DNA of 60,946 nucleotides, the filler included, from Nitrospinae bacterium RIFCSPLOWO2_12_FULL_45_22 (GTDB taxonomy: Bacteria; 2-12-FULL-45-22), in assembly GCA_001803565.1 (NCBI GenBank). It is 6 parts of 6 records of this genome, joined end to end, with 100 filler letters (N's around TTAATTAATTAA, not from the genome) between each part and the next. Parts side by side here need not be neighbours in the genome. Positions count along the whole stretch, not along the records: positions 33,685 to 45,313 come from MHDQ01000126.1; 5 more parts are not named here. One strand, written 5' to 3'. Positions within the stretch are counted from its first letter, which is position 1. The number at the start of each line of letters is the position of its first letter. The notes beneath the pieces are model-generated. The model saw nothing but the letters and a program-made list of their open reading frames with translations. It ran no database searches and was not told the origin of the DNA. Made by a program: the position numbers and the translations under genes. Positions 28,609 to 51,835 of this stretch are shown here, in pieces.

Positions 28609-28631
28609 ACGGAAAAAAGATAGAGTCTCCT

Positions 28632-31600: not shown

Positions 31601-32003
31601 TCGTATAGGTGGGCGACTAAAAACGGATAACAATACTCTAAGCCTTTTTTTATTTCTCGAGAGCTGCTGGACAGATAGGTTCTCAAGCAATATTACTTAC
31701 CGGTTTGCTAGAACTGACCTTCCCGGAGAGTATGATGAGAACAGAATCGGGACACAGCTATATTATTTTTTGCCCGCTGGCCTCAGGTTAAACCTTAATA
31801 TTGAATATATTGATATTAATCCTGAGAAAAATGAGCCCCTTGTTGCGGAAGCCGGTTCGTGGAAGTTTCAGCCTAGACTCAGCTATCAATTCTTCCGGAA
31901 CCGGATCACCATCTCTCTCAATGGACTTTATGAAGCAAGAGATATGAGTCATGATCACAAGGAAACGAAAAGATTTCAATTATTATTTTCCTGGAAATTC
32001 TGA
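28632..32003 (+). CDS. FecR + TPR + outer-membrane beta-barrel (TonB-dependent receptor-like) protein
   Basis: Signal peptide from ATG 28632; FecR motif VHTPTATTAIRGT..V.VLDGSV; TPR repeats; C-terminal ..FSWKF. Confidence 0.82.
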   Translation: MPFPIKVRPNSICRLFILTLLSTGLFPAQEIMAVRQPAEVVSVRPATFRSLKPDIWNNINPGDRVTEGSFIKTDPYGRLSLLLPNQMLLKVGGNTLFAYGEEADTGASLLRLRKGKLWMRSEKMPRGFRVHTPTATTAIRGTEWFMEVAEDGTTSVGVLDGSVVVENPLGKVILEPRELALVLPGKPPQKMVYLTPTDAVNWTLRYRGIWSESGLARSTGTLSSGIRAAIEAYHRNNYKKAFEIVRSLEKSQGNKAEWAAIVGFLKMVSGDHRGAREAFGRARSLAPDWALPVSHLALMDLVENQTAQALKRAREAVKIEPKSPTAHVVLAYALKGRLKMEEAYRASQEALQLDPGFTEGILVAARLALELERYKETRTLLESIKKESSAEAISETLLGYLSLREGKNFEALSHFERAITLDREWAEPMLGSGISLFRLGREKEGQNSVIKATLMEPQVSLYQAYLAKSYFELKRFPEAKQSIERAKRLDPKDPTPYLYEAIFRFDQHEPIRALAAIEKAFRLNGNRAVFRSRYLLDQDQAVLMANIAQIYSRVGFHRKSVQQAYDALLFDPTNEGAHRRLYFALLFDPSYYDQGAASEKLLTKLLVPTTRSAVIFDEDQLSPYTHMFDRSGADKTIVSNRFQQRDNDTRAIVQSGTADFAGKTKGPFAYHVQGFLDQDKFQSSLAPGPLKSATDTETLVGSSFFKWRPRPGLDLFLEANRNKSDTFSDSLYFFNLRPFTLSDNEQNSDVTNLDAGLHGAFGAGNHLFTHFSYYRLSADMNTDTTIYQPNMKTVLDGETDDEQIIFHTAYWKKWQDHFFQVGGRHFEGDLVNSSLFSSGLFRNSFKEKHKSEFDSIYLYHQWTANPAVVLIGGVAADYHRFKDEKGRGLSGWDLNPSFGFQWKLTSLWSLRAAYIRTTQGDRSERLQPSLIARFPLLRVNQVDLFTPEQLLNLERDTIAFGLDRTSLSEKHFWGIELAHDVANAYQRDPARIGGRLKTDNNTLSLFLFLESCWTDRFSSNITYRFARTDLPGEYDENRIGTQLYYFLPAGLRLNLNIEYIDINPEKNEPLVAEAGSWKFQPRLSYQFFRNRITISLNGLYEARDMSHDHKETKRFQLLFSWKF

Positions 32004-33584: not shown

Positions 33585-33684
33585 NNNNNNNNNNNNNNNN
33601 NNNNNNNNNNNNNNNNNNNNNNNNNNNNTTAATTAATTAANNNNNNNNNNNNNNNNNNNNNNNNNNNNNNNNNNNNNNNNNNNN

Positions 33685-33767
33685 ACAAAATTAGCACTGC
33701 AAAATTAGCAATTAACAAGAAGGAATTGCTTTTGAAATGCTAATTGCTAATTTTGTATTTTGCATTG
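33685..33767. repeat. 7-nt-unit inverted repeat element
   Basis: CAAAATTAGCA x2 ... TGCTAATTGCTAATTTTG. Confidence 0.6.
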
Positions 33768-33804
33768 AGTAATCAGGCCTTGGTGGCTGAAGAGTTCACA
33801 GATA

Positions 33805-36318
33805 ATGAAGCAGCCCCTAATCCCTCTGGTCGTATCTTATATCCTCGGCATCTTAATAGGTACTATTTATCCCCTGAAGCTTGTTCTTTTATTCTTCTAT
33901 GTCGGCATTGGCGCCCTTCTTTACATTATTTTAATCTTACCCTTACCTAGGTTTTTGCTGCTAAACAGGAAGGTTGCACCCTTACTCCTGTTTCTATTCC
34001 TACCCCTGGTAAGTGGCCAGGCCTACATGACTTTTCTTAGTATATATGGACAATATTACCCGACGAATCATCTAAAGAGCCTCTCCTTTCCCTACCGGCT
34101 TGATTTAGAAGGTCGGCTTTATGCCCCATCGGAAAAATTTCCTAAGAAGACCAGCCTCTATTTAGAAACCAGTCGGGTATGGGCTGGGGGTTCAGAGCGA
34201 CCGGTTATAGGCCGGGCCAGGATAAACGCTTATGGTCCGATGGATAACCTGGGATTAGGAGATAAGGTAATAATAAGGGGGGTCAAGCTTTATCCGCCTA
34301 AAGGGTTTAGAAATTTCTACGGGTTTGATTATCAAAAATATATGGCGCAAAAGGGAATATATGCCCTGGGTTGGGTAAAAGAAGGGTCGAGGATAGAGGT
34401 AGTGGATCGGGAAGGTGGCAATTATATCTTCCGGGGCATAGCTCAGTTAAAGACCAGGATGCTAAGCTTTGTTGAGCGCTACTCCCCTCAACCACAAGGG
34501 GCTATATTAAAGGCTATGGTCTTAGGGGATAAGGGCTTTCTCGACCGGGGCACTAAGCAGTTATTCAGGGATGCAGGTATTGCCCATCTCCTGGTGGTCT
34601 CTGGATTGCATGTAGGGTTTGTGGCCCTGGCTTTTATTGTGCTAGTCCATCCCCTATTGCGCTTTGTCCGATTCCATTTCCTGGCTGATTGGCCTTATGT
34701 CTTGAGGCCCCGTAAGCTGGCTATTGGCCTATCGCTTTTTCCTATCATCTTCTATTCGTTATTAGTAGGTGGAGGTTATGCTACCCTACGGGCAACCATA
34801 ACCGCCCTGGTATTTTTGCTAATATTATTGCAGGATCGGCCCAAAGACCTTTATAGTGCTACCGCTTTTGCCGCCTTATTGCTGCTCATCTGGCAACCCT
34901 ATGGTCTTTTTGATCCAGGGTTTCAGCTCTCTTTTGTGGCCGTGCTGGCTATTGCCCATATAATCTCCAGGATAAGCTCAGCCTATAAGAAGGGAAACAG
35001 CACACAGAGAGCGGAAAACAGGTTAGAGGATAAAGCTAACTCCTCTGGTCTGTTTCCTGCTTTCCTGTTTCCATATATATTAGTAGCCCTGTTCACTAGC
35101 TTAGCTACTTATCCCTTGACGGCTTATTATTTCCATCAGGTATCCCTGGTAGCCCCCCTGGCCAATATGGCTATTATACCTTTGGGGTCTGTAGTTGTGC
35201 CTCTTGGGTTAGCAGCTTGTGGGGCTGCCCTGGTTTGGGAACCGCTAGCCCAGATACTCTTGCAAGTAAATATCCTGATCCTGTCAGGGATCCTCTATTT
35301 GGCCAAATTATTTATCAGCCTACCCGGCGCTTCCTGGCGCATACCTACACCATCTCTACTGAGTATGCTAGCCTTTTATCTTTTGTTATTCACTGCCAGC
35401 AGTTACAAAAAAGCACAAAGGGTCTATCTATGGTCGGCTGTGTTTGCAGGGACGGTTCTGATCATATCCCTATTGGCCCAGTATCTCCCCAGGGGAGAGG
35501 ATGGGTTGCTAAAGGTAACCTTCTTAGATGTAGGGGAGGGGGACGCAATCTTTATAAAGACCCCTTATGGGAAGACCATGATGATTGATAGCGGGGGTAT
35601 CTATTCTGATACCCTGGATATTGGTGAAGATGTGATAGCACCATTTATCTGGAACCAGGGGTTTACTGGAATAGATCATATGGTAGCTACTCACCCTGAC
35701 CGGGATCATATCCAGGGGTTTTCTGGCCTGGTAAAGAATTTCCGGGTAAATTCTTTTTGGCATAATGGCGATCGAAAGGCATATCATTTCCCTGAAGGGT
35801 TTGAAGGGTTGATCAGCCGAAGGGGGGCGAATTATAGTGCCCTAAAGGATAAACATCGTTTTCTTGGGGATCATGGCGTCCTAATCCAGGTCTTTAACCT
35901 AAGGGAGGCCCTAGCGAAAGAGTCTGGGCCAGAAGATCAGCTTAGGGATAACAATAAGTCCCTGGTCATAAAGCTCCATTATGGACGGATAAGCTTCCTG
36001 TTCACGGCAGACATAGAAGAGTTAGCAGAAGGTTATTTAGCAGGCCGGGCAAAAGGTTTGCAGAGTACAGTCCTTAAAGTACCCCACCATGGCAGCCGCT
36101 CCTCCAGTAGCAAAAAATTTCTGGAAAAAGTTAACCCCGAGGTCGCGGTAATATCTGTGGGCAACCATAACCCCTTTGGCCATCCCTCACCCGCAGTGAT
36201 AGAAAGATTAAAGGAATTAGGTGCCAGGATATATCGCACGGATCAGCACGGCTCTATCCAGATAACCACTAATGGCCAGGATTACTCCATACAGACCTAC
36301 ACGGAACTTCAGGATTGA
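33805..36318 (+). CDS. comEC: DNA internalization competence protein ComEC/Rec2
   Basis: HLLVVSGLH, GFQLSF, FLDVGEGDA, THPDRDH, KVPHHGS, GHPS. Confidence 0.96.
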   Translation: MKQPLIPLVVSYILGILIGTIYPLKLVLLFFYVGIGALLYIILILPLPRFLLLNRKVAPLLLFLFLPLVSGQAYMTFLSIYGQYYPTNHLKSLSFPYRLDLEGRLYAPSEKFPKKTSLYLETSRVWAGGSERPVIGRARINAYGPMDNLGLGDKVIIRGVKLYPPKGFRNFYGFDYQKYMAQKGIYALGWVKEGSRIEVVDREGGNYIFRGIAQLKTRMLSFVERYSPQPQGAILKAMVLGDKGFLDRGTKQLFRDAGIAHLLVVSGLHVGFVALAFIVLVHPLLRFVRFHFLADWPYVLRPRKLAIGLSLFPIIFYSLLVGGGYATLRATITALVFLLILLQDRPKDLYSATAFAALLLLIWQPYGLFDPGFQLSFVAVLAIAHIISRISSAYKKGNSTQRAENRLEDKANSSGLFPAFLFPYILVALFTSLATYPLTAYYFHQVSLVAPLANMAIIPLGSVVVPLGLAACGAALVWEPLAQILLQVNILILSGILYLAKLFISLPGASWRIPTPSLLSMLAFYLLLFTASSYKKAQRVYLWSAVFAGTVLIISLLAQYLPRGEDGLLKVTFLDVGEGDAIFIKTPYGKTMMIDSGGIYSDTLDIGEDVIAPFIWNQGFTGIDHMVATHPDRDHIQGFSGLVKNFRVNSFWHNGDRKAYHFPEGFEGLISRRGANYSALKDKHRFLGDHGVLIQVFNLREALAKESGPEDQLRDNNKSLVIKLHYGRISFLFTADIEELAEGYLAGRAKGLQSTVLKVPHHGSRSSSSKKFLEKVNPEVAVISVGNHNPFGHPSPAVIERLKELGARIYRTDQHGSIQITTNGQDYSIQTYTELQD

Positions 36319-36709
36319 AAATCCTCTCTCTTTTCTAGTAAGTGGGGTATTGGAGAAGACAGTAAGGAAAGGTCATAGAAATCTTTATAAATGCAAAAGG
36401 CGTACTGTTCAAATTCAACAAGCATTATGTAATGTAATGACTGTTATAAGAGGATTTTTCTTACCTTTAAGACACCCATGACTCAATCGAGCAGGGAACA
36501 ATCATGAAAATTTTGTTATACTTATTACTCATGAGATATAGTGGGTCCATTATTCGTTGTGGTTATTGTTTGTTATTGCCGCCGATAGTGTATAAATACA
36601 TGTTTTTCAGACATGAGCCCAAATAAGATCGAGGCATTATAAGACCGTTAAAACCGGTTTTATAATGTTTATGTAACATCAAATCGTTATAGATAATAGG
36701 GGAAGGAAG

Positions 36710-37324
36710 TTGACCCTTAGCGCTGATAAGCCGGATATGCATATGGAGGAGCTTGCTAAGAGGATGGTTGCCTTGGACCAGGAAGCATATCGCGAGTTTG
36801 CGGATATTTTCGGCCCACGGTTCAGGTCCTTTTTCTTGAAACGGGGGCTTACGGCTTCAGATGCAGAGGATCTGGCAGTCTCTTGCATTACCGATATTGC
36901 TCTCAAAATAGAAAAATACAAGTCTGAAAAAAAGGGGAGTTTTGTAGCCTGGATATACACAATCATACGCCATGAGTTGGTGAACTGGTGGCGTAAGAAA
37001 CCTGATGAAGTCCCCCTCACCAATGACGGGTTGTTAAATATCGCTCAGGAGGATGATCCAAGGCAGAATATTGACATCATCTGTGCGGTCGAAAATGCGG
37101 TAGCCAAGCTTTCGGATACCGATCAAACCATTATTCAACTCCGGGACCTTGGAGCACAACACTCATATGCCGAAATAGCCGAACTCCTAGATATCAAACC
37201 CGGTAATGTAAGAGTCCGTCATCATCGGGCATTACAACGACTGCAATCTATCCTGGAAGAAGACCCGCACATCAGGAAACTACTGAATCGGAAAGAGAAT
37301 AATGATCGGAGGGAATCCAAATGA
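36710..37324 (+). CDS. ECF-type sigma factor
   Basis: DAEDLA..SFVAWIYTIIRH (region 2); SYAEIAELLDIKPGNVRVRHHRAL (region 4). Confidence 0.9.
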   Translation: MTLSADKPDMHMEELAKRMVALDQEAYREFADIFGPRFRSFFLKRGLTASDAEDLAVSCITDIALKIEKYKSEKKGSFVAWIYTIIRHELVNWWRKKPDEVPLTNDGLLNIAQEDDPRQNIDIICAVENAVAKLSDTDQTIIQLRDLGAQHSYAEIAELLDIKPGNVRVRHHRALQRLQSILEEDPHIRKLLNRKENNDRRESK

Positions 37325-37947
37325 GAAGAAAAAAGGAATATCAAGCTTCGCAGATAGAAACCTATCAGGAGCCAGAGTGGTTCACTGAAGCCTTACGGGC
37401 AACCCGCGATGCAGCCTATTTCGTTAATCCTGTTATTGAGCCGGAACAAATCTCTTTGTCTTTCCGAGAGAGATGCCGCAAAGCGGCGGAAGTCGCATTG
37501 ATTCTTGAAACCCTTCGCAGGGAACGGCGGCGTGTTGGTTTCGTGCCATTATCGCTGGCTAACTATATAGAAGGGCTTGCCAAGGTAACTAACGTGTCAC
37601 TGACTCCTGTACTGTTATGGCTGGGTATTACCGATCTTGCCGGGTTTGATCATGGCTCAGTGAAGGCCCTTGCCCGGTTAGCGAAAGATATTGAGATCAG
37701 CATCCGTGAGACGCTTGTTCATTTGCGCATTAGCTTTGCTGACCGGTTCGGCCTGGCGCCTATCTCCATGTTGCTCGCACACCGTCGTTCAACCGATGCT
37801 AGGCACAGCCAGTTGGAGGAATGCGAAGCGGCGCTTGATCAGGTCGAGCTGGAATTTGATCCCAAAACAAAAAGGGATTTCCGGCAAATCAGCGCTGAGG
37901 TTCGCTCGGTATATAAGTCTTCAGAAGAGGGTTCTTCTCTGTTCTGA
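37321..37947 (+). CDS. Hypothetical protein, possible degenerate XRE-like HTH or anti-sigma
   Basis: ATGA overlap with the sigma gene. LSLANYIEGL..VSL..V..WLGI..LARLAKDIEI resembles an XRE helix pattern. Confidence 0.5.
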   Translation: MRRKKEYQASQIETYQEPEWFTEALRATRDAAYFVNPVIEPEQISLSFRERCRKAAEVALILETLRRERRRVGFVPLSLANYIEGLAKVTNVSLTPVLLWLGITDLAGFDHGSVKALARLAKDIEISIRETLVHLRISFADRFGLAPISMLLAHRRSTDARHSQLEECEAALDQVELEFDPKTKRDFRQISAEVRSVYKSSEEGSSLF

Positions 37948-37963
37948 TTGGGGTGATGCTATT

Positions 37964-39511
37964 ATGACCGACAGAGAGGTTTCGATAAGCGCTTTGTTAA
38001 ATAAGCTGGCCGATGGTTGGTCTGCCTCCCATCGTAGTCTCTTAGATGAGGTGATACTGCGATGGGAGAAGAGGTTCGACACACGGGTTCAGGTCAAGGA
38101 TATTGATGAGAATATCTGCAACTTTGTGACCTACCTGAGTAAGATTCGCCTCCGTGGAATGTATCGGCTTCCATGCCTGATCGTCGGCGGAAAAACTTCA
38201 GATTTAACCCCGGCTGTTAAGAAGTTCTGGGAAAAGGTAAAATGTCCAGGTCGCATACCGTTTGTGTTGACCTTATCCGACATTGCTTACCAACAAGCGC
38301 TGTATGTTGTCCCTCGTTCGGATTGTCTATTGCTCCCTCCTGATCAAGTCTTGTCCCTGCTGGATAGCGCTGATCCTCAGGATACGCTTAAAGCATATCT
38401 CCGACAACAGATTCCAATACGACGGCTTAATCCATATACCATACTTCACTCAACCGACGGGAATATGTTTTTTGGGAGAAGCAAAGAGTTGGATAGGCTT
38501 CGGTACGAGAAAGATGTCAGCTTTGCCATCGCCGGCCCGAGTCGTATCGGAAAGACCTCTCTTTTGAAGCAGTACAATCGTGAGATGATCCGCGAGGGTG
38601 ATTCACGGGTTGCTCATATACGTGAGGTTGACTTCCATGATTGTCAGGATAGAACCCCGAATGGGGTGGCACGTTTTTTTGCGATGGAGATTAATCCATC
38701 AAATCGGAGTAACAGGATGACTGCCGAGGGCCTGGTTAATTTCTTGAAGTACCAGCGTTCTGAGCATGGACACCGACTGGAGTTGTTATTAGACGAGGTG
38801 GATGAGGTTTGTCAGGGAGGGGCCTTCAATTGTCTCGGCAAGGCGGCCAAGGAAGGTATCTGTCGATTGATACTTTCCGGAAGAGGATCTTTGCTGAAGA
38901 TGGCGTTGAGCTCACACTCTCCCATAGGTCATCGCCTGGATCTGATCCGTCCTGAACCCCTTGATACCGAATCAGCGAAAAAGCTGATTTTGGAACCACT
39001 GATGGACCTCGGCTTTCGTGTGATAGGCGTAGATCAAATTATCCACGACGTATTTCATTTAACAGGTCGTTTACCCCATCTTCTTCAATCCTATGGAAAT
39101 AAGCTGGTGGATATTGCTCTTGTTGAGGGCACAGATACGATCTCCATAGAGCATATTGATAGACTCAAGTGGGATTTCGAATTCGCTCAATATTTGACCA
39201 GCCCGCTTCAAGACATTGTGGATCCCAAAGGGCGTCTTTTGGCCCTAAGTCTACTGAAGGAGAGCCATCGAGACTTCGATATTCCGTCTATCCAGAAATT
39301 TGCTGAAGGTCTAGGATTTAACCTTGATTATCAGAAAACTAAAGAAATGTGCAATGATCTAGTTATTCACAATATTCTGGCTTGGAACCAAGGGTTGTAT
39401 CGAATCGCCACAGGAGCGCTGTCATACTATGCACGCGAGATGAGGTTTTTAGATGATGCTATAGACAAAGCACGCCATGCGATTAAGACGTGTCCTGACT
39501 CCGGCATGTGA
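37964..39511 (+). CDS. STAND-class P-loop ATPase with intact motifs
   Basis: NPY..FFGRSKEL, GPSRIGKTS, LLLDEVD, LTGRLPHLLQ, C-terminal winged helix; ATG 37964. Confidence 0.85.
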   Translation: MTDREVSISALLNKLADGWSASHRSLLDEVILRWEKRFDTRVQVKDIDENICNFVTYLSKIRLRGMYRLPCLIVGGKTSDLTPAVKKFWEKVKCPGRIPFVLTLSDIAYQQALYVVPRSDCLLLPPDQVLSLLDSADPQDTLKAYLRQQIPIRRLNPYTILHSTDGNMFFGRSKELDRLRYEKDVSFAIAGPSRIGKTSLLKQYNREMIREGDSRVAHIREVDFHDCQDRTPNGVARFFAMEINPSNRSNRMTAEGLVNFLKYQRSEHGHRLELLLDEVDEVCQGGAFNCLGKAAKEGICRLILSGRGSLLKMALSSHSPIGHRLDLIRPEPLDTESAKKLILEPLMDLGFRVIGVDQIIHDVFHLTGRLPHLLQSYGNKLVDIALVEGTDTISIEHIDRLKWDFEFAQYLTSPLQDIVDPKGRLLALSLLKESHRDFDIPSIQKFAEGLGFNLDYQKTKEMCNDLVIHNILAWNQGLYRIATGALSYYAREMRFLDDAIDKARHAIKTCPDSGM

Positions 39512-39543
39512 AGGCCGTAAATAAAGCAGATGGAGGATAAACA

Positions 39544-42500
39544 ATGATTCCTTTTTATTACAAAAAAATCAGTCTTTCGTTTGTCCAGGAATTGTGCGAT
39601 AAGGTCCATGACGGTGAGAGCGCGGTCTTGCTGGGATCTCGCTATGCTGGTAAGAGATGGATAATAAACCGGCTCTACTTACATTTACCAGAGTCGGGGT
39701 TTATACCTATTATTCGAGTCTATTTCCAACGCGAATCCACGGTAAAATCTGCATGGGAAGTACATCAATTAATAGAAAAAGAGATTAATGAAACAGGTGT
39801 GAACCTGAAGTTAGGGGAATATCAGGGAGATGAAATCTTTGAACCCATAGACCAATTATACTTGGAAACCAAGAAACCGATCATCCTGCTTGCAGCCAAT
39901 GTGGATAGTATGGCCCATTACCTGGCACGGCAATTCCTCGAGGGGGTAAGGACACGGGTTGAATCAAGACGGTTAGTTGTCGTATTAAGTGGAGAGGATG
40001 ATTTCCGTGACCTTGTTCATGGGCCAAAGTCCGAATTCAATTGCGCCAATCGGTATTTTGTCCAGGGTTTTGCCAAAGACGATTTTAAAGCCATTATTTC
40101 CCAATACGCAACTAGCCTGAACATCACATTCGAGGACGACACCGAGGCATATCGCATTCTTTGGGAACTGACTGAGGGGAACGTATTTTTGCTCAAGTCA
40201 TTGCTGTGGTCCGTGGTTGAGGGTCGTGTCCATTCAGACATTTCTCTAACCGTACCTGTTAGAGTTTCAGATATTCCGGACTCATTCGAAAAGATGCAAA
40301 TACCCGGTGTCTATGGACCTGATTTTCTTCGCTATGCGATTCGAGTCATTACCCGAAGACCGGATTGTTGGCAGGATTTAGAATGCCTTATTAATAATAA
40401 ACCTACAAATACGATCCCAATAGCTAGCGCTCCTGGCCCACTCGAGTTAGTCGGTATCGCTGTACGTGGTAATAACAATCGACTCCAGTTCGCCTCCCCA
40501 TTGATGGCAAATTTTATACGACATTATTATGATGATCGTTGTTTCGGAGACCTCTATGCGGGTGACGGACAGTGGGATATGGCATTTAAAAAATATAGTT
40601 TTCTCGGTCCACAGGAAAAAATTCGACCTTTAAACATTGAAGACAGGGTGAAAGTTGAAGAGACGCTCAATGCGTTTTGTTCTTCTCTGCATTTGGCCGC
40701 TACAGTGAATATTGATGCCGTAAAGGATCTTTTTACTCAAGGCTGTTTGCACATACTTGGATTCCAGGAAATTACATTCTGGGAATACAATAACGGGTGG
40801 CATTTCCAACCGATGACCGAAAGCCCTGTCAAAATAGATATCAAAGATAATGTGCTGAAAATCCTTCCTCCTATGCCGCCAATGTTGCGTGGATTGCTAC
40901 CGATGCCTGATCCCTGGAACGAAGATGCACTGTGCGTGTTACTCCCACCACTCCGTGCCAATCAATGTGGCGCGGTGGTAATGAGTACCTTTGAAAAAGA
41001 GAAAGCTATCTCTCGTGAACGTGGGAGTTTGGCCCGTAAACTGATTCACCATTTTGTGGATGCATATACCCATGCCGTCTCGGTTGAAAAGAATACTATG
41101 CGTCTTCGTGTACGGGATCAGCATATTGCGATCATAAACTCTATCTTTGATTCCCTGGGGAGCCGCATTCTGAATGTAGATCAGGCCATTGCCATGGCGG
41201 CACGGGGATTGCGTAATTTGGGATACAAGCGCGTCCTGTTCAGCTTGGTAGATCCGGAGGGCAAAAGGATTCAAGCCGTGCTGGATGACTCCAGTGATTC
41301 ATTAATTGACATCACTCAAATGTCTGATTGGCCTTTGGCCGAACCTACGGCCGATCTCCAGCCTTATATTATTCATACAAAACAGCCAAAGATCATCAAG
41401 GACGCCAGGCGGGAACCCCTTGCAAATAAAAAAATCGTCCGACTTGCACGCATGAAGGCCGAGGCCCTGGTTCCCATTTTGAATCAAAATGGCGATGCCA
41501 TTGGCACAATCCATGTCGAGCGTGAGGATGAGGCCGTCCCAACGCAAGAGGAAGTGGATGATCTATTAGTTTTTGGTCGCCAGCTTTCCATAGCCATCGA
41601 ACAGAGTAAGAGGGTAAACATGTTGCAGTCGACGCTGGATAAGATCCCTGAACCTGTTGTCATCATCGATCGGCTTAAACGGCTCCTGTATGCAAATAGA
41701 CCCGCCAATGATCTTTTTGGAACCAAGGCTGGTTGGCAGGACCAGCCAGGGGCTAAACCACCCAATGGGGGCGAGATGGATAAGATGTTGGAATACCTCG
41801 ATGAATCCCTGATATCTGGGCGCCGCATAGTTCATCACGCCGAAGGAATTGGGAAAAAGCCGACATATTGTGGTGCGGTCCTGTCCGATGTCATTCAAGA
41901 TTGGCAAAATAAAACAATTGGTGCGCTATTACATATTCAAGATATGAACTATCTCTACCATGTGTTCGCCGCATTTCGCGTTATTGCTGAATCTAACGAC
42001 ACTGACTCTGCTATACGCTCCATGATGGAAGCGACGCAGTTATTGGGGCATAAATGGGGACGTTTGTACCTTGTTGATGAAATGGATCCTGATTGCCTCG
42101 TGAGTGTGCGGTCTTTCGGTTTTGGGGACAAGACAATCCAAGAAGAATTCACCAAGGGTCACATTAGATTGCCGCGCTCCGATGAACCTGGGTATGTTTC
42201 GTGGAAATGTATAGACCTCAAAACCCCTCTGGTCTTTTGCTGGAAGGAGGATCTCCCAAATGATACTGAAGTAGTAACCCGGCAAGGTTTGCGGGCAACC
42301 AATGTAAACCCTCCAAGATCTCCCAAGCCGGTGCAGAAGCAACCCGGGGATTTCTGGATCGACTTTCCTCTCATCTCCCAGGCAAAAGTCTTGGGCAAGG
42401 TGGTCCTCCAGTGCGACGAGAGCCTACGCCCTGAAGAATTTGAGCTGCTCAAAGTGCTTTCTGATATAACAACCGGACTGTTGGGTGCCTTTCTTCGTCG

Positions 42501-43236
42501 AGGCCAAACATTCCATGAACGCGAGGATTGGATAAGAAGGGCGGCTGATGAAACCATGGCGGTCACGGCACACAATATTGCCACTCGCTTTTCCGCTTTG
42601 CCGGTATTACTGGACAGATATAAAAAGCTCCAACAAAAAGTGCCGAAATTGGAGGAACTAAATAGAGATTTCTCTCACATAATGAAAGAGACCCTGGATT
42701 TAGTCAAAAGGACAAAGGACCGACTGTCGCCGGTGACTCCCCTCCTTACCAAGATCAATATTTCAGACCGAATAAGAAATGCCCTAAGGTCTGCACTTCC
42801 TGCTGATGCATGGGATATTAAGTGTGAGGATCCTGATTTAATCGTGCACGCTGATACCCACCTATTAGAGAATGCTATACAGGAATTCCTTCAAAATTCA
42901 CGGGATGCAATCCCAGATGTCACGGATATGCATGTATCGGTCAATATTCGAAGCAAGGATAATTGGGTGAAATTAGTATATAGCGACAACGGTCCTGGTG
43001 TGCCTGGAGATTTTAAGGAACGGATTTTCGAAAATTTCTTTAGCTATCGGCCTGGGCGAAAGACCGGGACGGGTCTTGGTTTGGGGTTTGTCCGTAGAGT
43101 GATTGAAGCTCACGGTGGAACTGTTCGGGAAGAGGGAAGGCCTGGCCAGGGAGTGAAATTCGTAATTGAAATACCAAAATCGGGAATAATTAATGAAAAG
43201 GAGGAAGAATTTCATGTTTCGAATCCTAATCGTTGA
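39544..43236 (+). CDS. Degenerate STAND ATPase fused to GAF-PAS-GAF histidine kinase
   Basis: GSRYAGKRW, LLAANVD, LTEGNVFLL; GAF (ALVPIL..AIGTIHV); PAS (IPEPVVIID..YANRPA); AHN H-box, QNSRDA, DNGPG, GTGLGL. Confidence 0.85.
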   Translation: MIPFYYKKISLSFVQELCDKVHDGESAVLLGSRYAGKRWIINRLYLHLPESGFIPIIRVYFQRESTVKSAWEVHQLIEKEINETGVNLKLGEYQGDEIFEPIDQLYLETKKPIILLAANVDSMAHYLARQFLEGVRTRVESRRLVVVLSGEDDFRDLVHGPKSEFNCANRYFVQGFAKDDFKAIISQYATSLNITFEDDTEAYRILWELTEGNVFLLKSLLWSVVEGRVHSDISLTVPVRVSDIPDSFEKMQIPGVYGPDFLRYAIRVITRRPDCWQDLECLINNKPTNTIPIASAPGPLELVGIAVRGNNNRLQFASPLMANFIRHYYDDRCFGDLYAGDGQWDMAFKKYSFLGPQEKIRPLNIEDRVKVEETLNAFCSSLHLAATVNIDAVKDLFTQGCLHILGFQEITFWEYNNGWHFQPMTESPVKIDIKDNVLKILPPMPPMLRGLLPMPDPWNEDALCVLLPPLRANQCGAVVMSTFEKEKAISRERGSLARKLIHHFVDAYTHAVSVEKNTMRLRVRDQHIAIINSIFDSLGSRILNVDQAIAMAARGLRNLGYKRVLFSLVDPEGKRIQAVLDDSSDSLIDITQMSDWPLAEPTADLQPYIIHTKQPKIIKDARREPLANKKIVRLARMKAEALVPILNQNGDAIGTIHVEREDEAVPTQEEVDDLLVFGRQLSIAIEQSKRVNMLQSTLDKIPEPVVIIDRLKRLLYANRPANDLFGTKAGWQDQPGAKPPNGGEMDKMLEYLDESLISGRRIVHHAEGIGKKPTYCGAVLSDVIQDWQNKTIGALLHIQDMNYLYHVFAAFRVIAESNDTDSAIRSMMEATQLLGHKWGRLYLVDEMDPDCLVSVRSFGFGDKTIQEEFTKGHIRLPRSDEPGYVSWKCIDLKTPLVFCWKEDLPNDTEVVTRQGLRATNVNPPRSPKPVQKQPGDFWIDFPLISQAKVLGKVVLQCDESLRPEEFELLKVLSDITTGLLGAFLRRGQTFHEREDWIRRAADETMAVTAHNIATRFSALPVLLDRYKKLQQKVPKLEELNRDFSHIMKETLDLVKRTKDRLSPVTPLLTKINISDRIRNALRSALPADAWDIKCEDPDLIVHADTHLLENAIQEFLQNSRDAIPDVTDMHVSVNIRSKDNWVKLVYSDNGPGVPGDFKERIFENFFSYRPGRKTGTGLGLGFVRRVIEAHGGTVREEGRPGQGVKFVIEIPKSGIINEKEEEFHVSNPNR

Positions 43237-43906
43237 AGATATTGAATTAACCCTCGAACAACTTGAAAAAACTCTATCCGAGGAGTTTCCTCAGTCAACA
43301 ATTGACACCGCTGAAACGGTTAAGGAAGGGCTTGAACGGATTGAAGCGGCAGTGGATAAGGGCCAACATTATCATGCGGCTGTCCTGGATTTCAAGTTGC
43401 CTGAAGATAAAGGAAAACAAGATGAGGTGGACGAATCGCTGTGTGAAAAAATCAGGCATGAAATGCCGGATATAATCGTCGCTCACATTTCCGCATACCC
43501 AGGTGACCCCAAAATTCAGGATCATGTGAAAAATTATCATCTAGATCGCAGGGACTCTAGCGCGGCATTAATCTCCAAGGACGAAGTAGACTGGCCCTCG
43601 GAACTCGTCAAAAAGTTGAAGGAATTTCTCTATGGAACACGCATTGAAGAACAGATAAATAATCTATTTCGCAAGCAACCAGTGAGCGCATATCGTGAAC
43701 CGATTTATCGCAGAAGAACAGGAACAATAGGTAATGGAAGCGTCACCCATGAACTCGCCGCCTTGTTTCGTGACATTTTGGAAAACTGGACAGCGCTGGA
43801 TGACAGATTACGGACCAGGATTATGTCTCTGTTTCGCGTAGATACCTCAAGTGATCCCATACGCATCGGTTTGATAAAAGACATAGATGCCATGATGAAG
43901 GAGTAA
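43214..43906 (+). CDS. Response regulator: receiver domain plus unknown C-terminal domain
   Basis: ILIVED, VLDFKLP, ISAY, ISK; overlaps the kinase stop. Confidence 0.88.
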   Translation: MFRILIVEDIELTLEQLEKTLSEEFPQSTIDTAETVKEGLERIEAAVDKGQHYHAAVLDFKLPEDKGKQDEVDESLCEKIRHEMPDIIVAHISAYPGDPKIQDHVKNYHLDRRDSSAALISKDEVDWPSELVKKLKEFLYGTRIEEQINNLFRKQPVSAYREPIYRRRTGTIGNGSVTHELAALFRDILENWTALDDRLRTRIMSLFRVDTSSDPIRIGLIKDIDAMMKE

Positions 43907-43909
43907 AAT

Positions 43910-45193
43910 ATGCCGGTTCTTAGGATGGAAGACATCCTTGAGAAACTCCCGCTAATACTGGAATCCGACCACTTTATTGTCCGCTTTGCCCTTCGAAATC
44001 CACAGGAAGGCAGGGGAGAGAAGCGAGGTGGTGTTAGAAACCAACGATTACTCCTGGCTTATCTTGATGCCCTTGAAAGGCTATATGCGACAATGACCGA
44101 GGGGCCCTGGAAACGTTATCCGCCTAATACCGGTGGCCAGGGAAAGACTCTTGTATTCGTCTTTGACACCTCGGAGTTTTTACGAAGCGCTGACTGCCCC
44201 TTCACTAGTGTTGACCACAAAGGTATCCCTTTTATTGGCCTCCCATACCAGAACAATGAACCTATCATACATGGCGAGCTCCAGCGAGCAGCGGTAGAAG
44301 CCATTCATGAGGCAACGCATGTTTTTAATTTTCGCGAGCGGCCTCTTCTTGATCCCCAAACGGGCATTTGGGATCCTGCTGTAAAATTATGGGTATGGTT
44401 TGACGATGCTATGGCTGTTTTCATGGAGACGCTGGTCTTGTCAGGATGCCCCGAGCATCTTCGTTTTATCATGGAATGGAGTGACAGGCCGGATATGCCG
44501 CTTGATGGCTTTTATTCAAGATACCAATCGAGCATGTTTGTCCGTTATCTGGGAAGGAGAATGGGGCTAGAATTTATCAATAGGGTATGGACAGAGTCTA
44601 AGAGGGATGAGATACCAATCCAGGCGCTTGATAGATTGTTACGGCAGGAAAACCTGGAGTTCTCTTCATCCAATCCAGAGATTCGAGACATCTTTGCCTC
44701 GGGCTACTGCATGGATTCTTATTTTCTGATCGATCCCAGGAGTCCAGGCTTCGCGCCTGAGGTATACGAGAGATTTCGTGAACGGGCAATATCGGAAAGT
44801 TTCTTATTAGGTGCAGGGAAAACCGCAGAGACTGAAGGTTGTCTGGACCACCTCGCTTGTCAATACTACCGGCTCTATGTCATGAATAGCGTCAAGGCTA
44901 TTCAAGTTCAGCTTGAAACCAAAGCCCTTGGAGGAGATACCCCACTCAAGGCAGAGATAGCGACAGTAACTGATGAAATGCAGCGGGGTAAAGTCCGGCC
45001 ATTGAAACGGACCACTTTCCCTGGGCAAGATGATACGGTGCAATTATCCACTGTATTGAACGAAACAAACCTAGAGGATATTGACCATCTCGTCCTTGTT
45101 GTCAGCAATTGTGGAGTCAGAGCTGTACAGGAAAAACCTGGCATTGAGCACGATGACCAACAGGAGTATAAAATTGTTGTTGCAGCTTACTAG
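43910..45193 (+). CDS. HExxH zinc metallopeptidase-like protein
   Basis: AIHEATHVFN, WFDDAMAVFME, Y.SSMFVRYL; no evident signal peptide. Confidence 0.75.
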   Translation: MPVLRMEDILEKLPLILESDHFIVRFALRNPQEGRGEKRGGVRNQRLLLAYLDALERLYATMTEGPWKRYPPNTGGQGKTLVFVFDTSEFLRSADCPFTSVDHKGIPFIGLPYQNNEPIIHGELQRAAVEAIHEATHVFNFRERPLLDPQTGIWDPAVKLWVWFDDAMAVFMETLVLSGCPEHLRFIMEWSDRPDMPLDGFYSRYQSSMFVRYLGRRMGLEFINRVWTESKRDEIPIQALDRLLRQENLEFSSSNPEIRDIFASGYCMDSYFLIDPRSPGFAPEVYERFRERAISESFLLGAGKTAETEGCLDHLACQYYRLYVMNSVKAIQVQLETKALGGDTPLKAEIATVTDEMQRGKVRPLKRTTFPGQDDTVQLSTVLNETNLEDIDHLVLVVSNCGVRAVQEKPGIEHDDQQEYKIVVAAY

Positions 45194-45413
45194 AAAATTT
45201 TAGAGAGGAGCGTCAGTCTCTTCTAAGTTCACCTTGGTAAAATTAAACCTATTCTGCATCTAAAGCATGGTGCTCCATTTCTATCCTCCACTCAAAAAAA
45301 ATCCCTAACCAATNNNNNNNNNNNNNNNNNNNNNNNNNNNNNNNNNNNNNNNNNNNNTTAATTAATTAANNNNNNNNNNNNNNNNNNNNNNNNNNNNNNN
45401 NNNNNNNNNNNNN

Positions 45414-45495
45414 GGATGGCCGAGTGGTTTAAGGCGACGGTCTTGAAAACCGTAGACCGAAAGGTCCGTGGGTTCGAATCCTACTCCCTCCGCCA
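45414..45495 (+). tRNA. tRNA-Ser(TGA), 5' end cut by the linker
   Basis: ACGGT-CTTGAAA-ACCGT anticodon arm, long variable arm, GGTTCGAATCC, CCA. Confidence 0.95.
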
Positions 45496-45566: not shown

Positions 45567-45923
45567 GTGGAGTTATTTAGATTTTTAGCATGGCAGGTCT
45601 ATAAAGATGCGAAAGAACTATTTAAGTTAGTTTATGAAATAGCAAATAGATTACCAAGTAATATAAGGTTTGAGTTGGGTACCCAGCTAGTAAGGGCTTC
45701 ATTTTCTACGGTATTAAATATTTCCGAAGGCAGTGGGAAAAATTCGGACAGAGAACTAAGAAGGTACTTTAATATATCAATCGGATCGCTGAATGAGACA
45801 GTTGCTGGAATGGATATTTTAAGGGATAATGAGTTAATCACGGAAGAAGAATTTGATTTGGTGCTTCAACGGGCGAAAAGTATTTCTAAACAATTAGGCG
45901 GATTTAAGAAAAAATTGGTATAA
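45567..45923 (+). CDS. Four helix bundle protein (23S rRNA IVP / Avd-like family)
   Basis: FRFLAWQVY..QLVRASFS..LNISEGSG..SIGSLNE. Confidence 0.9.
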   Translation: MELFRFLAWQVYKDAKELFKLVYEIANRLPSNIRFELGTQLVRASFSTVLNISEGSGKNSDRELRRYFNISIGSLNETVAGMDILRDNELITEEEFDLVLQRAKSISKQLGGFKKKLV

Positions 45924-45977: not shown

Positions 45978-46070
45978 GGAGAGGTGGCCGAGCTGGCCTA
46001 AGGCGCTCGCCTGCTAAGCGAGTAAAGGTCGAAAGATCTTTCGAGGGTTCGAATCCCTCCCTCTCCGCCA
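45978..46070 (+). tRNA. tRNA-Ser(GCT)
   Basis: GGAGAGG/CCTCTCC acceptor stem, CTCGC-CTGCTAA-GCGAG, long variable arm, CCA. Confidence 0.97.
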
Positions 46071-46284
46071 GGCAGCATATAGCTGCAGTANNNNNNNNNN
46101 NNNNGCTCCTACGCCTCACGCATCCGTGTCCATCCGTGGCTAAAAACCTAATGGTAGCTAAACAATTACATTCCTTCATGTTTTTGGCCTTCTTGAAAGA
46201 GGGCGTAATGGAGCAAGAGTGAGGGGTGGGCAGTTACGTGCTCAATCCTTTTAGTGCCTCCGTGTCTTAGTGGCACATAAAAGG

Positions 46285-46968
46285 TTACCCGGGGAGATGG
46301 GTGAGGGTCTTCTCTTCAAAGAGGATAAACTCGTTGATTAATTGGGCTATCCCTCTATAAAAATCGCTCTGGGTCTTCTGGCAGATCTGCTTACAGAGTT
46401 CTGGGAGCCAGGGGGTCAGGTGATTTATAACGAACTCAGCTTCTAGTTTTTGCCACTGAACAGCCTCTTCTTCCTTTCCTTGTTGCCAGGCCTCACGTTC
46501 CCTCTGGCAGAGGTAGTGCATAAAGGCCAATTCTATCCCGGCATGGTCTGGCAGCTCGGTACAGTGCTCATCCAATTCTGTCCCAGCACGCCGGTAAATC
46601 TTTCTGACTGCCTGGGCTGAGGGGCCCAGGAGCAAGCCCTTCTTTTTTTTACCCGCTATCTCCCAGGTATCGCAATACACCGATTCATATGGGGTAACGT
46701 ATTTTCCCAGGGGGACATGAAAAAGGTCGTAATACTCCTGCTGGAGTTTATCCAGGTCGCCATTATAGCCCTGGGAAAATTCCTCTAGTATAGCTAACAC
46801 TGAGGGATCAAAGTACTGGGAGAGTTCTTCGAGAAGGCCTGGTTCTTGAAGCTGCTTTATCAAATTATCCTGAGGAGGGTTAAGGAATATGGAGGAGAAA
46901 AATAAATAGAAAATCTCCCGCACAACGGCTATTTGCGCCTGGGCTTGTATTTGTAATTTATTACCCAT
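46285..46968 (-). CDS. TorD/DmsD-family molybdoenzyme chaperone
   Basis: PYESVY, ELPDHAGIELAFM, HL..W. Confidence 0.92.
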   Translation of the reverse strand: MGNKLQIQAQAQIAVVREIFYLFFSSIFLNPPQDNLIKQLQEPGLLEELSQYFDPSVLAILEEFSQGYNGDLDKLQQEYYDLFHVPLGKYVTPYESVYCDTWEIAGKKKKGLLLGPSAQAVRKIYRRAGTELDEHCTELPDHAGIELAFMHYLCQREREAWQQGKEEEAVQWQKLEAEFVINHLTPWLPELCKQICQKTQSDFYRGIAQLINEFILFEEKTLTHLPG

Positions 46969-47038
46969 TTCTTATGCTTTGCCCAGAAAATAAAAATTTA
47001 TAACTGTTTAGCCAAACAAAGCATCTCACGAATTATTT

Positions 47039-47100
47039 GTAGTGGTCGAGCTTGCTCGACATGCCTAGCATCACCCCGGCAGAGCAAGCTCTGCCACTAC
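47039..47100. repeat. Inverted GTAG-REP pair (REPIN-like)
   Basis: GTAGTGGTCGAGCTTGCTCGAC...GGCAGAGCAAGCTCTGCCACTAC. Confidence 0.8.
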
Positions 47101-47303
47101 ATTGTCCCTTTGCGATTTTATAATATTAATTCGTCTAAACCTCTTGGAATTCTTATCTCACCGCTGAAGACGCAGAGAACACTAAGACCGTGGGACGTGT
47201 CCGTGATCCGTGTCCATTACTCAACGGACACGTAGAACGGACACGGTTACGAAAGTGCATTCTCTGTGTCCTCTGTGGTGAACGGTTACATATTTTTTAT
47301 GTT

Positions 47304-47879
47304 TTAAGGCAGCGTCGTGGCCTCGAACCGGGTAGCGGGATGGGTATAGCTGGGGTCGGGAAACCCATCCGGCTTATTTTGTCCAGAATTACTGATATTA
47401 AAGTCCTCGGAATGCAGTGCCCGACCTGTACAGGTAGTCTCGCAGGCTGGCTTCAGGCCCGCATCAATCCGGTGCACACAGAAGGTACACTTCTCTACCT
47501 TCTTGGTATTGGCATTATACTGCGGGACACCATAAGGACAGGCCCATTCGCAGTAGCGGCACCCGATACACTTATCCTGGTCAATCAAGACAATGCCGTC
47601 AGCACTCCTTTTGCTGATGGCATCAACCGGGCAGGAGGCCAGGCAGGCTGGGTGCTGACAATGGTTACAAGCCGAGGTAACGAATCGTTTCTTGACATTG
47701 GGATAAGTACCGCTATCTTTAAAAATAACCCAGCGCCAACTGGTATGGGTCGGGATCCCCTCTTCGGTAATCATAGGGGAAAAGAGGGGATAGGTATTGT
47801 TTTCGGACTTACAGGCAATGGTGCAGCTCTCACAGCCAGTGCATTTATCCAACTGAATAAGCCAACCTTTTTGAGCCAT
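47304..47879 (-). CDS. 4x[4Fe-4S] electron-transfer subunit (DmsB/TtrB-like)
   Basis: CTGCESCTIAC, CNHC..PAC..CP, CIGCRYCEWACPY, KCTFC..PAC..C. Confidence 0.93.
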   Translation of the reverse strand: MAQKGWLIQLDKCTGCESCTIACKSENNTYPLFSPMITEEGIPTHTSWRWVIFKDSGTYPNVKKRFVTSACNHCQHPACLASCPVDAISKRSADGIVLIDQDKCIGCRYCEWACPYGVPQYNANTKKVEKCTFCVHRIDAGLKPACETTCTGRALHSEDFNISNSGQNKPDGFPDPSYTHPATRFEATTLP

Positions 47880-47893
47880 CTTCTCACCTCCAT

Positions 47894-47980
47894 ATGATTA
47901 ACTTATAACGATTAACCAATAACTTATAACGGGGAGGGACCTTTTGTTATCAGTTAATTGTTATTAGTTATATGTTAGAT
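47894..47980. repeat. 7-nt tandem/inverted repeat element without a gene
   Basis: ACTTATA/ACGATTA/ACCAATA units, then GTTATCA/GTTATTA/GTTATAT units. Confidence 0.75.
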
Positions 47981-47983
47981 TTG

Positions 47984-50854: not shown

Positions 50855-50928
50855 AATTGCATTAACCTCCTTTCAAATTTTTTTATCCTGAATTATGTAG
50901 GTTTCATTTAAAAATGCTTTACTCGCTT

Positions 50929-51010
50929 GTCATTCTGAGCCGCAGCCCTGAACAAAGTGAAGGGTCAGGCGAAGAATCTAACCAAGACCCTTCGCTCCGC
51001 TCCGGGTGAC
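50929..51010. repeat. GTCATTCTGAGC..GAAGAATCT/AGA..CTTCGCT..GTGAC palindromic repeat (also 24906-60 and 52340-98)
   Basis: Three related copies in the window. Confidence 0.75.
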
Positions 51011-51064
51011 AACCCCTGGTGAACGGTTACGAAAAAGCCATTCAGTACTGAAAGATATATGTCA

Positions 51065-51835
51065 TTATTGATAGAAGGGTTTCGTAGAGCCTTTACTATG
51101 GCAGGCCACGCACCGGGTAACATCGGTATTACGCCGGAGGCTGACAGCCGATTCGTCCCGCATATCTACCCCTTTGCTATGGCAGGCCTGGCAGGTCTCG
51201 TTTGTAACCGTAGTAGTGCCAGGATAATAGGGAAACATGGCGGCATGGGCAGGTTTTATGCTGGGGTCTAAAGATTTTTCGCTTACCCGGTCACCATGGC
51301 AGATCAAGCAAGCCTTATTATAACTAGGGGAGTTAGGGTCATGGGCGGCCATGATGGCCGAGGGGGATTTGAAGGGCTTTATTAAGTTAAAAGAGGTACT
51401 AGAATATGATGTAAAAGGGGGGGTAATAGAACCTGGTTTGGTAAATACTGCCCAGAAGGTGTAAGCACCACCAGTGATATCTGGTACCTGAAAATCGAAT
51501 AAGGTCCCTGCGGCATTACTTACGTTCCAGGAAGTAGCTAGTGGGACAATCTGGTCTGTCCACTGCGTCTGTGGGGTCAAGAATTGAAAGGTATTATCCG
51601 GCAACTGTAAGGCAAAATATATATCTACCTTATTATTTTCTGTCCCGGCCTTAATATCGAATTTCAAGGTTAAGCGATCCTGGCCCTTAACATAGTTGTT
51701 CTTATTAGCGATAAGGGTGATAGAGGGGTTACCGGCTAATGCGGTCACGGCAGGTAAAAAGAGTAATCCTACTGCGAAGATACAGATTAAAACTAAACCT
51801 AAATACTTCAATTCTACTCGATTACCTCGCTCCAT
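51065..51835 (-). CDS. Exported triheme c-type cytochrome with N-terminal Ig-like domain
   Basis: Signal peptide; CLICH, CQACH, CVACH. Confidence 0.85.
   Translation of the reverse strand: MERGNRVELKYLGLVLICIFAVGLLFLPAVTALAGNPSITLIANKNNYVKGQDRLTLKFDIKAGTENNKVDIYFALQLPDNTFQFLTPQTQWTDQIVPLATSWNVSNAAGTLFDFQVPDITGGAYTFWAVFTKPGSITPPFTSYSSTSFNLIKPFKSPSAIMAAHDPNSPSYNKACLICHGDRVSEKSLDPSIKPAHAAMFPYYPGTTTVTNETCQACHSKGVDMRDESAVSLRRNTDVTRCVACHSKGSTKPFYQ

Follow-up and report, generated by a model that had tools for sequence, protein, structure and literature searches.

A six-gene cassette combining a STAND NTPase pair, a kinase-receiver pair, an HExxH protein and an ECF sigma factor with a predicted anti-sigma partner in a Nitrospinae genome

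Gene content of the locus

The DNA analyzed here, referred to as the window, is a 60,946-nucleotide stretch from Nitrospinae bacterium RIFCSPLOWO2_12_FULL_45_22 (assembly GCA_001803565.1), and the subject of this study is a cassette of six tightly packed genes, g1 to g6, on its plus strand at positions 36710-45193. The window consists of separate contigs of one bin joined by linkers of the form N...TTAATTAATTAA...N. The contig of the cassette spans window positions 33685-45313 (11,629 nt) and is identical to locus L032 of the collection described below. Since this contig stops 120 nt after g6, nothing downstream of g6 in the window represents its real context. Runs of N were found at 33585-33684, 45314-45413 and 46092-46105, the first two of which hold the embedded TTAATTAATTAA linker. 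The cassette and the conserved element that precedes it comprise the following features:

36672-36702, + strand: cis element TGTAAC-N7-CGTT(A) and, about 5 nt behind it, TAATAG/GGAAG-like bases
36710-37324, + strand: g1, extracytoplasmic function (ECF)-type sigma factor with sigma-2 and sigma-4 regions (TIGR02937, Sigma70_r2, Sigma70_r4_2)
37321-37947, + strand: g2, cytoplasmic protein of 208 aa with an all-helical model, predicted to act as an anti-sigma factor (predicted complex with g1)
37964-39511, + strand: g3, 515-aa STAND-type NTPase, predicted to be active (nSTAND1/AAA_22; PF20703, Walker A/B)
39544-43236, + strand: g4, 1230-aa cytoplasmic sensor histidine kinase with a predicted inactivated STAND N terminus (Pfam, AlphaFold2 (AF2) model, hhalign)
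43214-43906, + strand: g5, receiver (REC) protein with a conserved C-terminal region (Response_reg, PDB profile, alignment)
43910-45193, + strand: g6, 427-aa HExxH protein, putative gluzincin-type metallopeptidase (DUF6055/MXAN_6640-like)

An earlier note, made from the sequence of this DNA, had described six co-oriented and nearly contiguous genes. This layout was confirmed by open reading frame (ORF) listing and translation, with all genes on the plus strand, gaps of at most 32 nt and successive spacings from g1 to g6 of -4, +16, +32, -23 and +3 nt. All six products are predicted to be cytoplasmic. Taking a Kyte-Doolittle value of at least 1.6 over 19 residues as the criterion for a transmembrane helix, no window of any of the proteins qualified, the highest value being 1.32, in agreement with the absence of such helices claimed before. 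The in-frame ORF of g3 opens at 37691, and its true start is the ATG at 37964, where homologues and the ribosome-binding site place it. The ORF of g5 opens at 43193, and both the alignment and the Atlas record start at M8 (43214); residues of g5 are numbered here from the 43193 ORF.

Conservation of the gene order

To place the cassette among its relatives, loci were collected with a g3 profile, which returned 31 loci in species-representative genomes and 54 in metagenomes. Synteny was determined by tblastn with the six window proteins, g4 being split in two to give seven segments, and near-identical loci were collapsed. The resulting set includes 36 non-redundant loci whose flanking DNA suffices to hold all genes. 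All seven segments were found in the order and on the strand seen in the window in 22 of these 36 loci, and seven further loci lack a match to g2 only. One locus has no match to g1 only, three show g3 to g6 only, and three show only g3 and a g4-like gene. At the positions without a g2 match, a similar-sized ORF bearing the same F-x-x-R-C motif is present. The earlier note would have given up its proposal if homologues never co-occurred in this order; the full six-gene order was observed directly in the 22 loci. Such repetition of one gene order in dozens of unrelated loci is far more than chance would give. The position behind comEC, which the note had also pointed out, is seen in the window (comEC, 33805-36318, upstream of g1), but this adjacency is not conserved, no comEC match being present in L001-L031.

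Across the loci, g3 and the N-terminal part of g4 (g4N) always occur together, while g1 and g2 are lost together, leaving g3-g4-g5-g6 in L055 and L030. Judged by their record titles, the hosts are mostly Acidobacteriota, and include Pirellulaceae and other Planctomycetota, Verrucomicrobiota, one Gammaproteobacterium, one Beijerinckiaceae bin and three bins labelled Heliobacteriaceae/Heliomicrobium. Across the several phyla in which the cassette occurs, identity is 30-50%. With a g4 N-terminal profile (E ≤ 1e-30), 9 of the 81 genomes in one carrier's family proved to contain the cassette; a sample of 300 other genomes from the same phylum contained none. Five carriers contain one or two copies per genome.

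Two peculiarities of single loci were recorded. The intact locus L005 and L030, which is frameshifted in g3, g4 and g5, adjoin on one contig, head to tail-end, as do L041 and L078. The gap between g2 and g3 measures about 400 nt in L036, L037, L038, L040 and L043, compared with 16 nt in the window, room that an additional small gene or element may occupy.

An intact and an inactivated STAND module

The g3 protein matches the nSTAND1 model PF20703 with 30.5 bits (cut-off 27.1) and also AAA_22. Its Walker A residues G191, G196, K197 and S199 (GxxxxGK[T/S]) and its Walker B residues D277 and E278 (hhhhDE) are invariant in 23 sequences. About 165 aa at the N terminus form a conserved domain, the C-terminal region is helical, and the full length of the protein, N-terminal domain included, is common to widespread nSTAND1/AAA_22 proteins of about 500 aa. 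Its structural neighbours in the Atlas are labelled nSTAND1 (TM 0.80-0.82), while a sequence search of the PDB gave a single match at chance level (E 0.63). At least 221 homologues exist, without a functional source name save for two generic or odd labels; the 120 listed measure 486-530 aa and cover 93-100% of the 515-aa form. Judged by its motifs and family matches, g3 is an nSTAND1-clade STAND NTPase with intact Walker motifs.

In g4, Pfam recognizes GAF, PAS and HATPase_c domains after about 540 residues without a family. The following layout was obtained for this protein (all + strand):

residues ~1-330: inactivated STAND-like NTPase, predicted (Foldseek, hhalign)
to residue ~540: helical linker and GAF (AF2 model)
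residues 545-686: GAF (Pfam)
residues 693-728 and beyond: PAS (Pfam)
residues ~800-990: region of no assigned family
42571-42573: H1010, histidine of the dimerization and histidine phosphotransfer (DHp) domain, invariant in 24/24 sequences
residues 1104-1212 (42853-43179): HATPase_c (Pfam, 2.7e-19)

The AF2 model of residues 1-540 has a pLDDT of 89.4, and Foldseek matched it to PAB2304 (7.5e-9), followed by Cdc6/ORC, Avs3, CED-4, NLRPs and MalT. An hhalign comparison aligned g4 residues 15-247 with g3 residues 174-401 over 223 columns (probability 94.4%, E 8.8e-8). BLASTP of g3 against g4 residues 1-540 returned nothing, so the homology is visible by profile-profile comparison only, and a single-sequence PDB search with g4N was equally negative. 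g4N keeps the P-loop residues G36 and K37, which are nearly invariant, and an invariant D121. The Walker A Ser/Thr is lost, the motif reading GxxxxGK[R/K/G] with mostly Arg at the last position, and the Walker B Asp-Glu is replaced by Ser/Ala-Asn. On these grounds the N terminus of g4 is classed as an inactivated paralogue of g3, of STAND/AAA+ fold and deprived of the residues for hydrolysis. The pairing of an active with an inactive STAND protein, as claimed earlier, is upheld because g4N is a paralogue of g3 in which the Walker A Ser/Thr and the Walker B Asp-Glu are both missing.

A kinase-receiver pair and an HExxH protein

In the C-terminal half of g4 the ATP-binding boxes are kept alongside the invariant H1010. 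The g5 protein scores 23.7 bits against Response_reg, below the cut-off of 30.2; its profile compared with PDB sequences retrieved response regulators (3.7e-10), for the REC part only, and its Atlas neighbours are REC proteins, the first two being REC+PNP clusters. E15 and D16 of g5 are nearly invariant, and D66, P70 and K129 are invariant in 24 sequences. Phosphorylatable His, HATPase_c, acidic pocket, Asp and Lys are thus all present, and by these residues g4 and g5 are a putative two-component phosphotransfer pair. The last ~100 aa of g5 contain the conserved motif GxTHxLAxLxRDIxxHWxDLD with an invariant W199. This region has no family in Pfam, no PDB-profile match and no effector family.

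The g6 protein matches DUF6055 with 35.3 bits (cut-off 27) and MXAN_6640_HExxH with 9.5e-11, the latter below the cut-off of the model. The HExxH motif is encoded at 44306-44320, and H133, E134 and H137 are invariant in 23/23 sequences, as is, nearly, E166, which lies 29 residues downstream of H137. DUF6055 was detected in 16 of 23 g6 members and Peptidase_MA_2 weakly in 3 of 23 (E 0.027), while the g6 profile found nothing among PDB sequences. With an HExxH motif and a downstream Glu, g6 is a putative zincin/gluzincin metallopeptidase (Peptidase MA-like). The gene identities proposed in the earlier note (sigma factor, kinase, receiver, HExxH protein and so on) were right save for the label of g2, with H1010, D66 and HExxH all invariant.

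The sigma factor and its predicted partner

The g1 protein matches the sigma70-ECF model TIGR02937 with 72.8 bits (2.4e-20, cut-off 42.9). Sigma70_r2 and Sigma70_r4_2 were found above their gathering scores, and regions 1 and 3 gave no match, which identifies g1 as an ECF (group 4) sigma-70 factor. Clustering placed a g1 in 24 loci. No assignment to a named ECF group was obtained with the 25 specific NCBIfam sigma models listed, all of which stayed far below their cut-offs; the best was BldN, with 64 bits compared with a cut-off of 206.

For g2, no Pfam, NCBIfam or PADLOC family was found and a PDB-profile search gave nothing useful. The protein evolves fast (mean column identity 35%), and its AF2 model (pLDDT 87) contains nine helices. 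Fold comparison reached an E of 0.11 at best with Foldseek and a Z of 4.4 at best with VIA, from which neither the novelty of the fold nor the absence of a helix-turn-helix (HTH) is established. The earlier description of g2 as HTH-like found no support in any family or fold match; instead, g2 is predicted to bind both sigma domains of g1. The predicted g1-g2 complex has a median ipSAE of 0.73 (0.71-0.80 in three runs), compared with 0.00 for three controls; among solved complexes, 58 of 80 attained the mark used, and among mismatched pairs, 2 of 110, a calibration that is only rough because the alignments were self-made, and part of the score may reflect likeness, since sigma/anti-sigma complexes are common among solved structures. 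The runs have at least 71% of contacts in common, with a partner pLDDT of at least 76. In the predicted complex, the N-terminal helices of g2 (residues 15-67) touch sigma-2 (22-68) and sigma-4 (120-195) of g1. Anti-sigma factors hold ECF sigma factors by contacting both of these regions. The predicted binding to sigma-2 and sigma-4 suggests that g2 may act like an anti-sigma factor outside the known families.

A conserved element upstream of g1

Gibbs sampling of g1-upstream regions and anchored alignments identified the cis element listed above, whose first base lies 38 nt ahead of the g1 start codon. In 27 of 45 non-redundant loci it is present no more than 300 nt ahead of g1, always in the orientation of the gene. 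Random 330-nt windows drawn from these loci contain it in 16 of 1080 cases. In the window, the strict pattern GTAAC-N7-CGTT occurs once (36673-36688, 37 nt before the g1 start), where 0.14 occurrences are expected. The inner part, TAACG-N5-CGTTA, is palindromic, and weaker TAAT(A/G)G/GGAAG-like bases follow at a fixed distance. The same element is found directly before the accessory pair described below in L002, L027, L004 and L014.

The -35 and -10 boxes of ECF promoters are usually spaced by 16-17 nt. TGTAAC and CGTT were set aside as such boxes, the two blocks lying 7 nt apart. The palindrome and the 7-nt block spacing suggest that the element may be the operator of a dimeric regulator and not a sigma promoter. 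Two readings are consistent with these data: a promoter with TGTAAC as the -35 box and a weak -10 box 16 nt on, overlapped by an operator, or an operator alone. An exact search for bipartite -35/-10 boxes upstream of g1 with spacers of 15-18 nt gave nothing above shuffled sequences, and a CGCCG...GTTT lead from it was dropped. Scans for sigma-70-type promoters and terminators were likewise not above shuffles.

Accessory genes and variants in related loci

Several relatives carry additional genes. A pair consisting of a Zn-ribbon/RDD membrane protein and a reverse transcriptase (RT; PADLOC RT 4.5e-48, Pfam RVT_1) lies upstream of g1 in L002, L003, L004, L009, L027 and L050 and beside L014. The PADLOC matches of this RT are group II intron-like or CRISPR-associated-like. 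Models match its residues 21-194 and 358-444 separately (L002 7093-8604 and relatives, cluster 14), and it seems to carry an insertion of about 160 aa. TIR genes are located between g5 and g6 in L001 and L009 (TIR_2, 3.9e-19 and 3.8e-23). In L055, g6 itself begins with an in-frame N-terminal TIR domain (588 aa in all, matching TIR_2 and DUF6055), and behind this fusion gene lies another TIR gene; by tblastn, L030 has the same layout and carries TIR genes.

L055 and L030 are also variants without g1-g2. Directly upstream of g3 in L055 (5873-9813) lie an OLD-family ATPase/TOPRIM nuclease and a UvrD helicase, a Gabija pair by domain content, and a TnsA-like gene is found near L030. Minimal variants (L026, L031 and L067) consist only of g3 and a g4-like protein without a kinase domain. 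In L026 (14970-16565) and L067 (14676-16340), a co-oriented protein of about 530-555 aa without a Pfam family follows, which may be an alternative output.

Comparison with known systems

None of the six proteins has a significant match in PADLOC-DB 2.0.0, the best being g5 to PDC-M60B (2.4e-4) and g3 to PDC-S01 (3.6e-3), with none for g2, g4 and g6. This agrees with the earlier note, which had not recognized a named defence system in the combination. The literature searched on nSTAND1, DUF6055, MXAN_6640 and combined terms does not describe the six-gene combination in the text portions covered, although supplementary context tables may list it.

The closest characterized system is Detocs, which has another gene set and another sensor. 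Detocs comprises three genes, for the kinase DtcA, the receiver DtcB and the receiver-PNP effector DtcC (bioRxiv 10.1101/2023.01.24.525353). It resembles the cassette in a cytoplasmic kinase-to-receiver transfer that does not end in a DNA-binding response regulator, and in modular effectors; it differs in that its kinase bears a TPR sensor, its effector is fused to a receiver and an additional receiver serves as a 'buffer'. The cassette, in contrast, has one receiver gene, whose C-terminal region lacks an effector family, its sensor is a STAND pair with GAF/PAS, and it contains in addition an HExxH protein of its own as well as sigma and predicted anti-sigma genes; it thus falls outside Detocs.

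Two-component-linked ECF groups include ECF15, ECF246, ECF32, ECF39 and ECF234, of other architectures according to the main text of the ECF classification (PMC7826278). The context of g1 is unlike those described there. PhyR-NepR-EcfG (ECF15) shares with the cassette, as modelled below, an ECF sigma factor with a cytoplasmic anti-sigma factor under the control of a kinase and a receiver (main text of PMC7826278). PhyR bears a sigma-like domain, whereas g5 has no sigma-70 region match in Pfam, NCBIfam or PDB-profile searches and is therefore not of the PhyR type. The two-component-linked ECF systems of that main text are without STAND NTPases or a peptidase, unlike the cassette, and it mentions neither ATPase nor metalloprotease contexts.

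Systems with active and inactive STAND proteins, receivers, TIR effectors and an occasional ECF sigma factor have been described by Kaur, Burroughs, Iyer and Aravind, among them EACC2-caspase systems to which an ECF sigma factor is coupled (text parts of PMC7159879, PMC8195603). As in the nSTAND1-containing conflict systems, g3 matches the nSTAND1 Pfam model. The iSTAND ternary systems are defined in these texts by a MoxR-vWA pair, which none of the six cassette genes encodes; a VWA gene at 25153-27087 sits on another contig of the window. The receivers described there occur without histidine kinases (PMC7159879, PMC8195603), whereas in the cassette the inactive STAND module is joined to a complete kinase. 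The text of both papers does not describe this six-gene combination, and the supplements may list it.

Another likeness is to peptidase switches. In ImmA/ImmR, IrrE/DdrO and CapP/CapH a peptidase encoded by an adjacent gene cleaves the regulator, and RseA and RsiW are anti-sigma factors subject to regulated proteolysis. Such switches have in common a zinc metallopeptidase next to a regulator, which is cleaved upon a signal to turn on a stress, mobile-element or defence operon. g6 differs in belonging to DUF6055/MXAN_6640 and not to M78, in its proposed substrate, an anti-sigma factor, and in its proposed trigger, a phosphorelay. The cassette consists of known kinds of parts in a combination that has no name in PADLOC or in the literature covered.

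Proposed function and alternatives

The nested pattern of gene content suggests a layered system, with g3 and g4N as a sensing core, kinase, receiver and HExxH protein as a relay, the sigma/anti-sigma pair as a detachable output and TIR or RT/RDD genes as optional cargo. We propose that the cassette is an autonomous, horizontally scattered unit in which a STAND-gated phosphorelay sets a dedicated sigma factor free, plausibly in an inducible response of the conflict type, a reading for and against which we find the balance about even. In this model, g3 and its inactivated paralogue in g4 would gate the autophosphorylation of H1010 upon an intracellular cue, and g4 would then phosphorylate D66 of g5, whose C-terminal domain may act together with the always adjacent g6 peptidase. 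g2 would be a cytoplasmic anti-sigma factor of a new fold that holds g1 until the relay inactivates it, most likely through cleavage by g6. Freed g1 would transcribe from TGTAAC-N7-CGTT sites, and thereby the cassette itself and, in some relatives, the cargo. The biological role would be a response induced by an invader or insult inside the cell. In a stronger form of the proposal, the cassette would represent a new class of inducible immune system, in which a STAND pair detects an invader and, through a phosphorelay, leads the receiver-controlled zinc peptidase to destroy g2, and a private sigma factor drives exchangeable TIR or RT plus membrane-partner cargo from a private promoter or operator; this we advance tentatively and hold to be rather doubtful.

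The case for a conflict or immune role is circumstantial and consists of the TIR and RT accessories, one Gabija-like neighbour and the patchy distribution. Several observations weigh against the proposed reading. GAF and PAS domains typically serve in ordinary sensing of metabolism or environment, and the 76 flanking ORFs scanned are mostly housekeeping genes (PolA, transketolase, esterase, sulfatase etc.). No match to g3 or g6 was found in the plasmid collection and no cassette relative on viral contigs, the window copy has no TIR, RT or other effector gene on its own 11.6-kb contig, and the PADLOC search was negative. Since g6 persists in the variants without a sigma factor, cleavage of g2 is not its sole role. 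The two limits given above for the score of the g1-g2 complex, as well as the operator reading of the cis element, count in the same direction. A first alternative is a plain, non-immune regulator, in which a two-component system with an ECF sigma factor would sense a metabolite, redox state or second messenger via GAF/PAS and tune host genes for stress, development or a niche trait, with the STAND proteins as nucleotide-dependent scaffolds like those of MalT-like regulators and the TIR/RT neighbours as incidental insertions. We consider this explanation credible, though short of probable. It is favoured by a sigma factor as the output, by the sensor domains of the kinase, by the housekeeping flanks and the one or two copies per genome, and by the results for plasmids, viral contigs, PADLOC and effector genes in the window. 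It is harder to reconcile with a distribution that is very patchy (9/81 in the family, 0/300 in the rest of the phylum) and yet extends over several phyla at 30-50% identity, with a frameshifted copy beside an intact one on one contig (L030, L005), and with the same cis element before the RT/RDD pair in four loci. Moreover, the TIR domain of L055 is no incidental neighbour, because it is fused in frame to g6.

Other alternatives concern the way in which the relay would act. The C-terminal domain of phosphorylated g5 might bind g2 and thereby take it off the sigma factor, as PhyR does with NepR, with g6, instead of regulating, acting as a downstream effector or sensing foreign protein. The g5 receiver is intact and its C-terminal domain conserved, and ECF15 systems use receiver-containing anti-anti-sigma factors (main text of PMC7826278). 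An effector role is consistent with both the retention of g6 without g1-g2 and its fusion to TIR, a domain of the effector type. We nevertheless regard such a partner switch as unlikely: no sigma-like domain is detectable in g5 with Pfam and PDB profiles, and g5 itself persists in the sigma-less variants, so that binding of g2 is not its only task. Still less likely in our view is abortive infection, in which the HExxH peptidase, with TIR where present, would be a toxic effector switched on by the STAND-gated phosphorelay, while the sigma/anti-sigma pair merely autoregulates the dosage of the cassette. TIR::g6 fusions and extra TIR genes exist, the first two structural neighbours of the g5 REC domain are REC+PNP clusters, and in Detocs two-component phosphotransfer activates a killing effector (bioRxiv 10.1101/2023.01.24.525353). 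However, sigma and anti-sigma genes are present in most loci, with g1 in at least 29 of 36 by tblastn, and the element before cargo genes points to a wider transcriptional output, which counts against this explanation.

If the proposed STAND-gated relay is true, the cassette would join STAND/NLR-type sensing, two-component phosphotransfer and ECF sigma/anti-sigma control, which are usually studied apart, and would be a second example, after Detocs, of a phosphorelay outside classical gene regulation. It would also provide a new anti-sigma fold, an inactivated STAND paralogue built into a kinase as its input domain, and a compact orthogonal set of sigma factor, anti-sigma factor and cis element as a potential synthetic switch. 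Even as a plain regulator, a well-conserved, sporadic six-gene cassette without annotation in the libraries searched is worth naming.

Other features of the window

The Rfam scan of the window detected two tRNAs alone, both off the cassette contig, at 45410-45492 (43.3 bits) and 45978-46067 (58.3 bits) on a short separate contig piece. Between them, at 45567-45923, lies a gene for a 23S rRNA intervening-sequence protein (PF05635, 8.9e-25). As the contig ends at 45313, these tRNAs and the genes past that position are not neighbours of the cassette. A 1166-aa ORF at 28503-32003 combines FecR with many TPR repeats and a weak match to a TonB-dependent-receptor barrel, a fusion that is unusual for a FecR-type anti-sigma or sensor protein. 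Finally, genes for a NarJ-like chaperone (46285-46968, - strand), a 955-aa molybdopterin oxidoreductase (47984-50854, - strand) and a multihaem MtrC/c7-like cytochrome (51065-51835, - strand) are clustered, which suggests a respiratory oxidoreductase cluster at 46285-51835.

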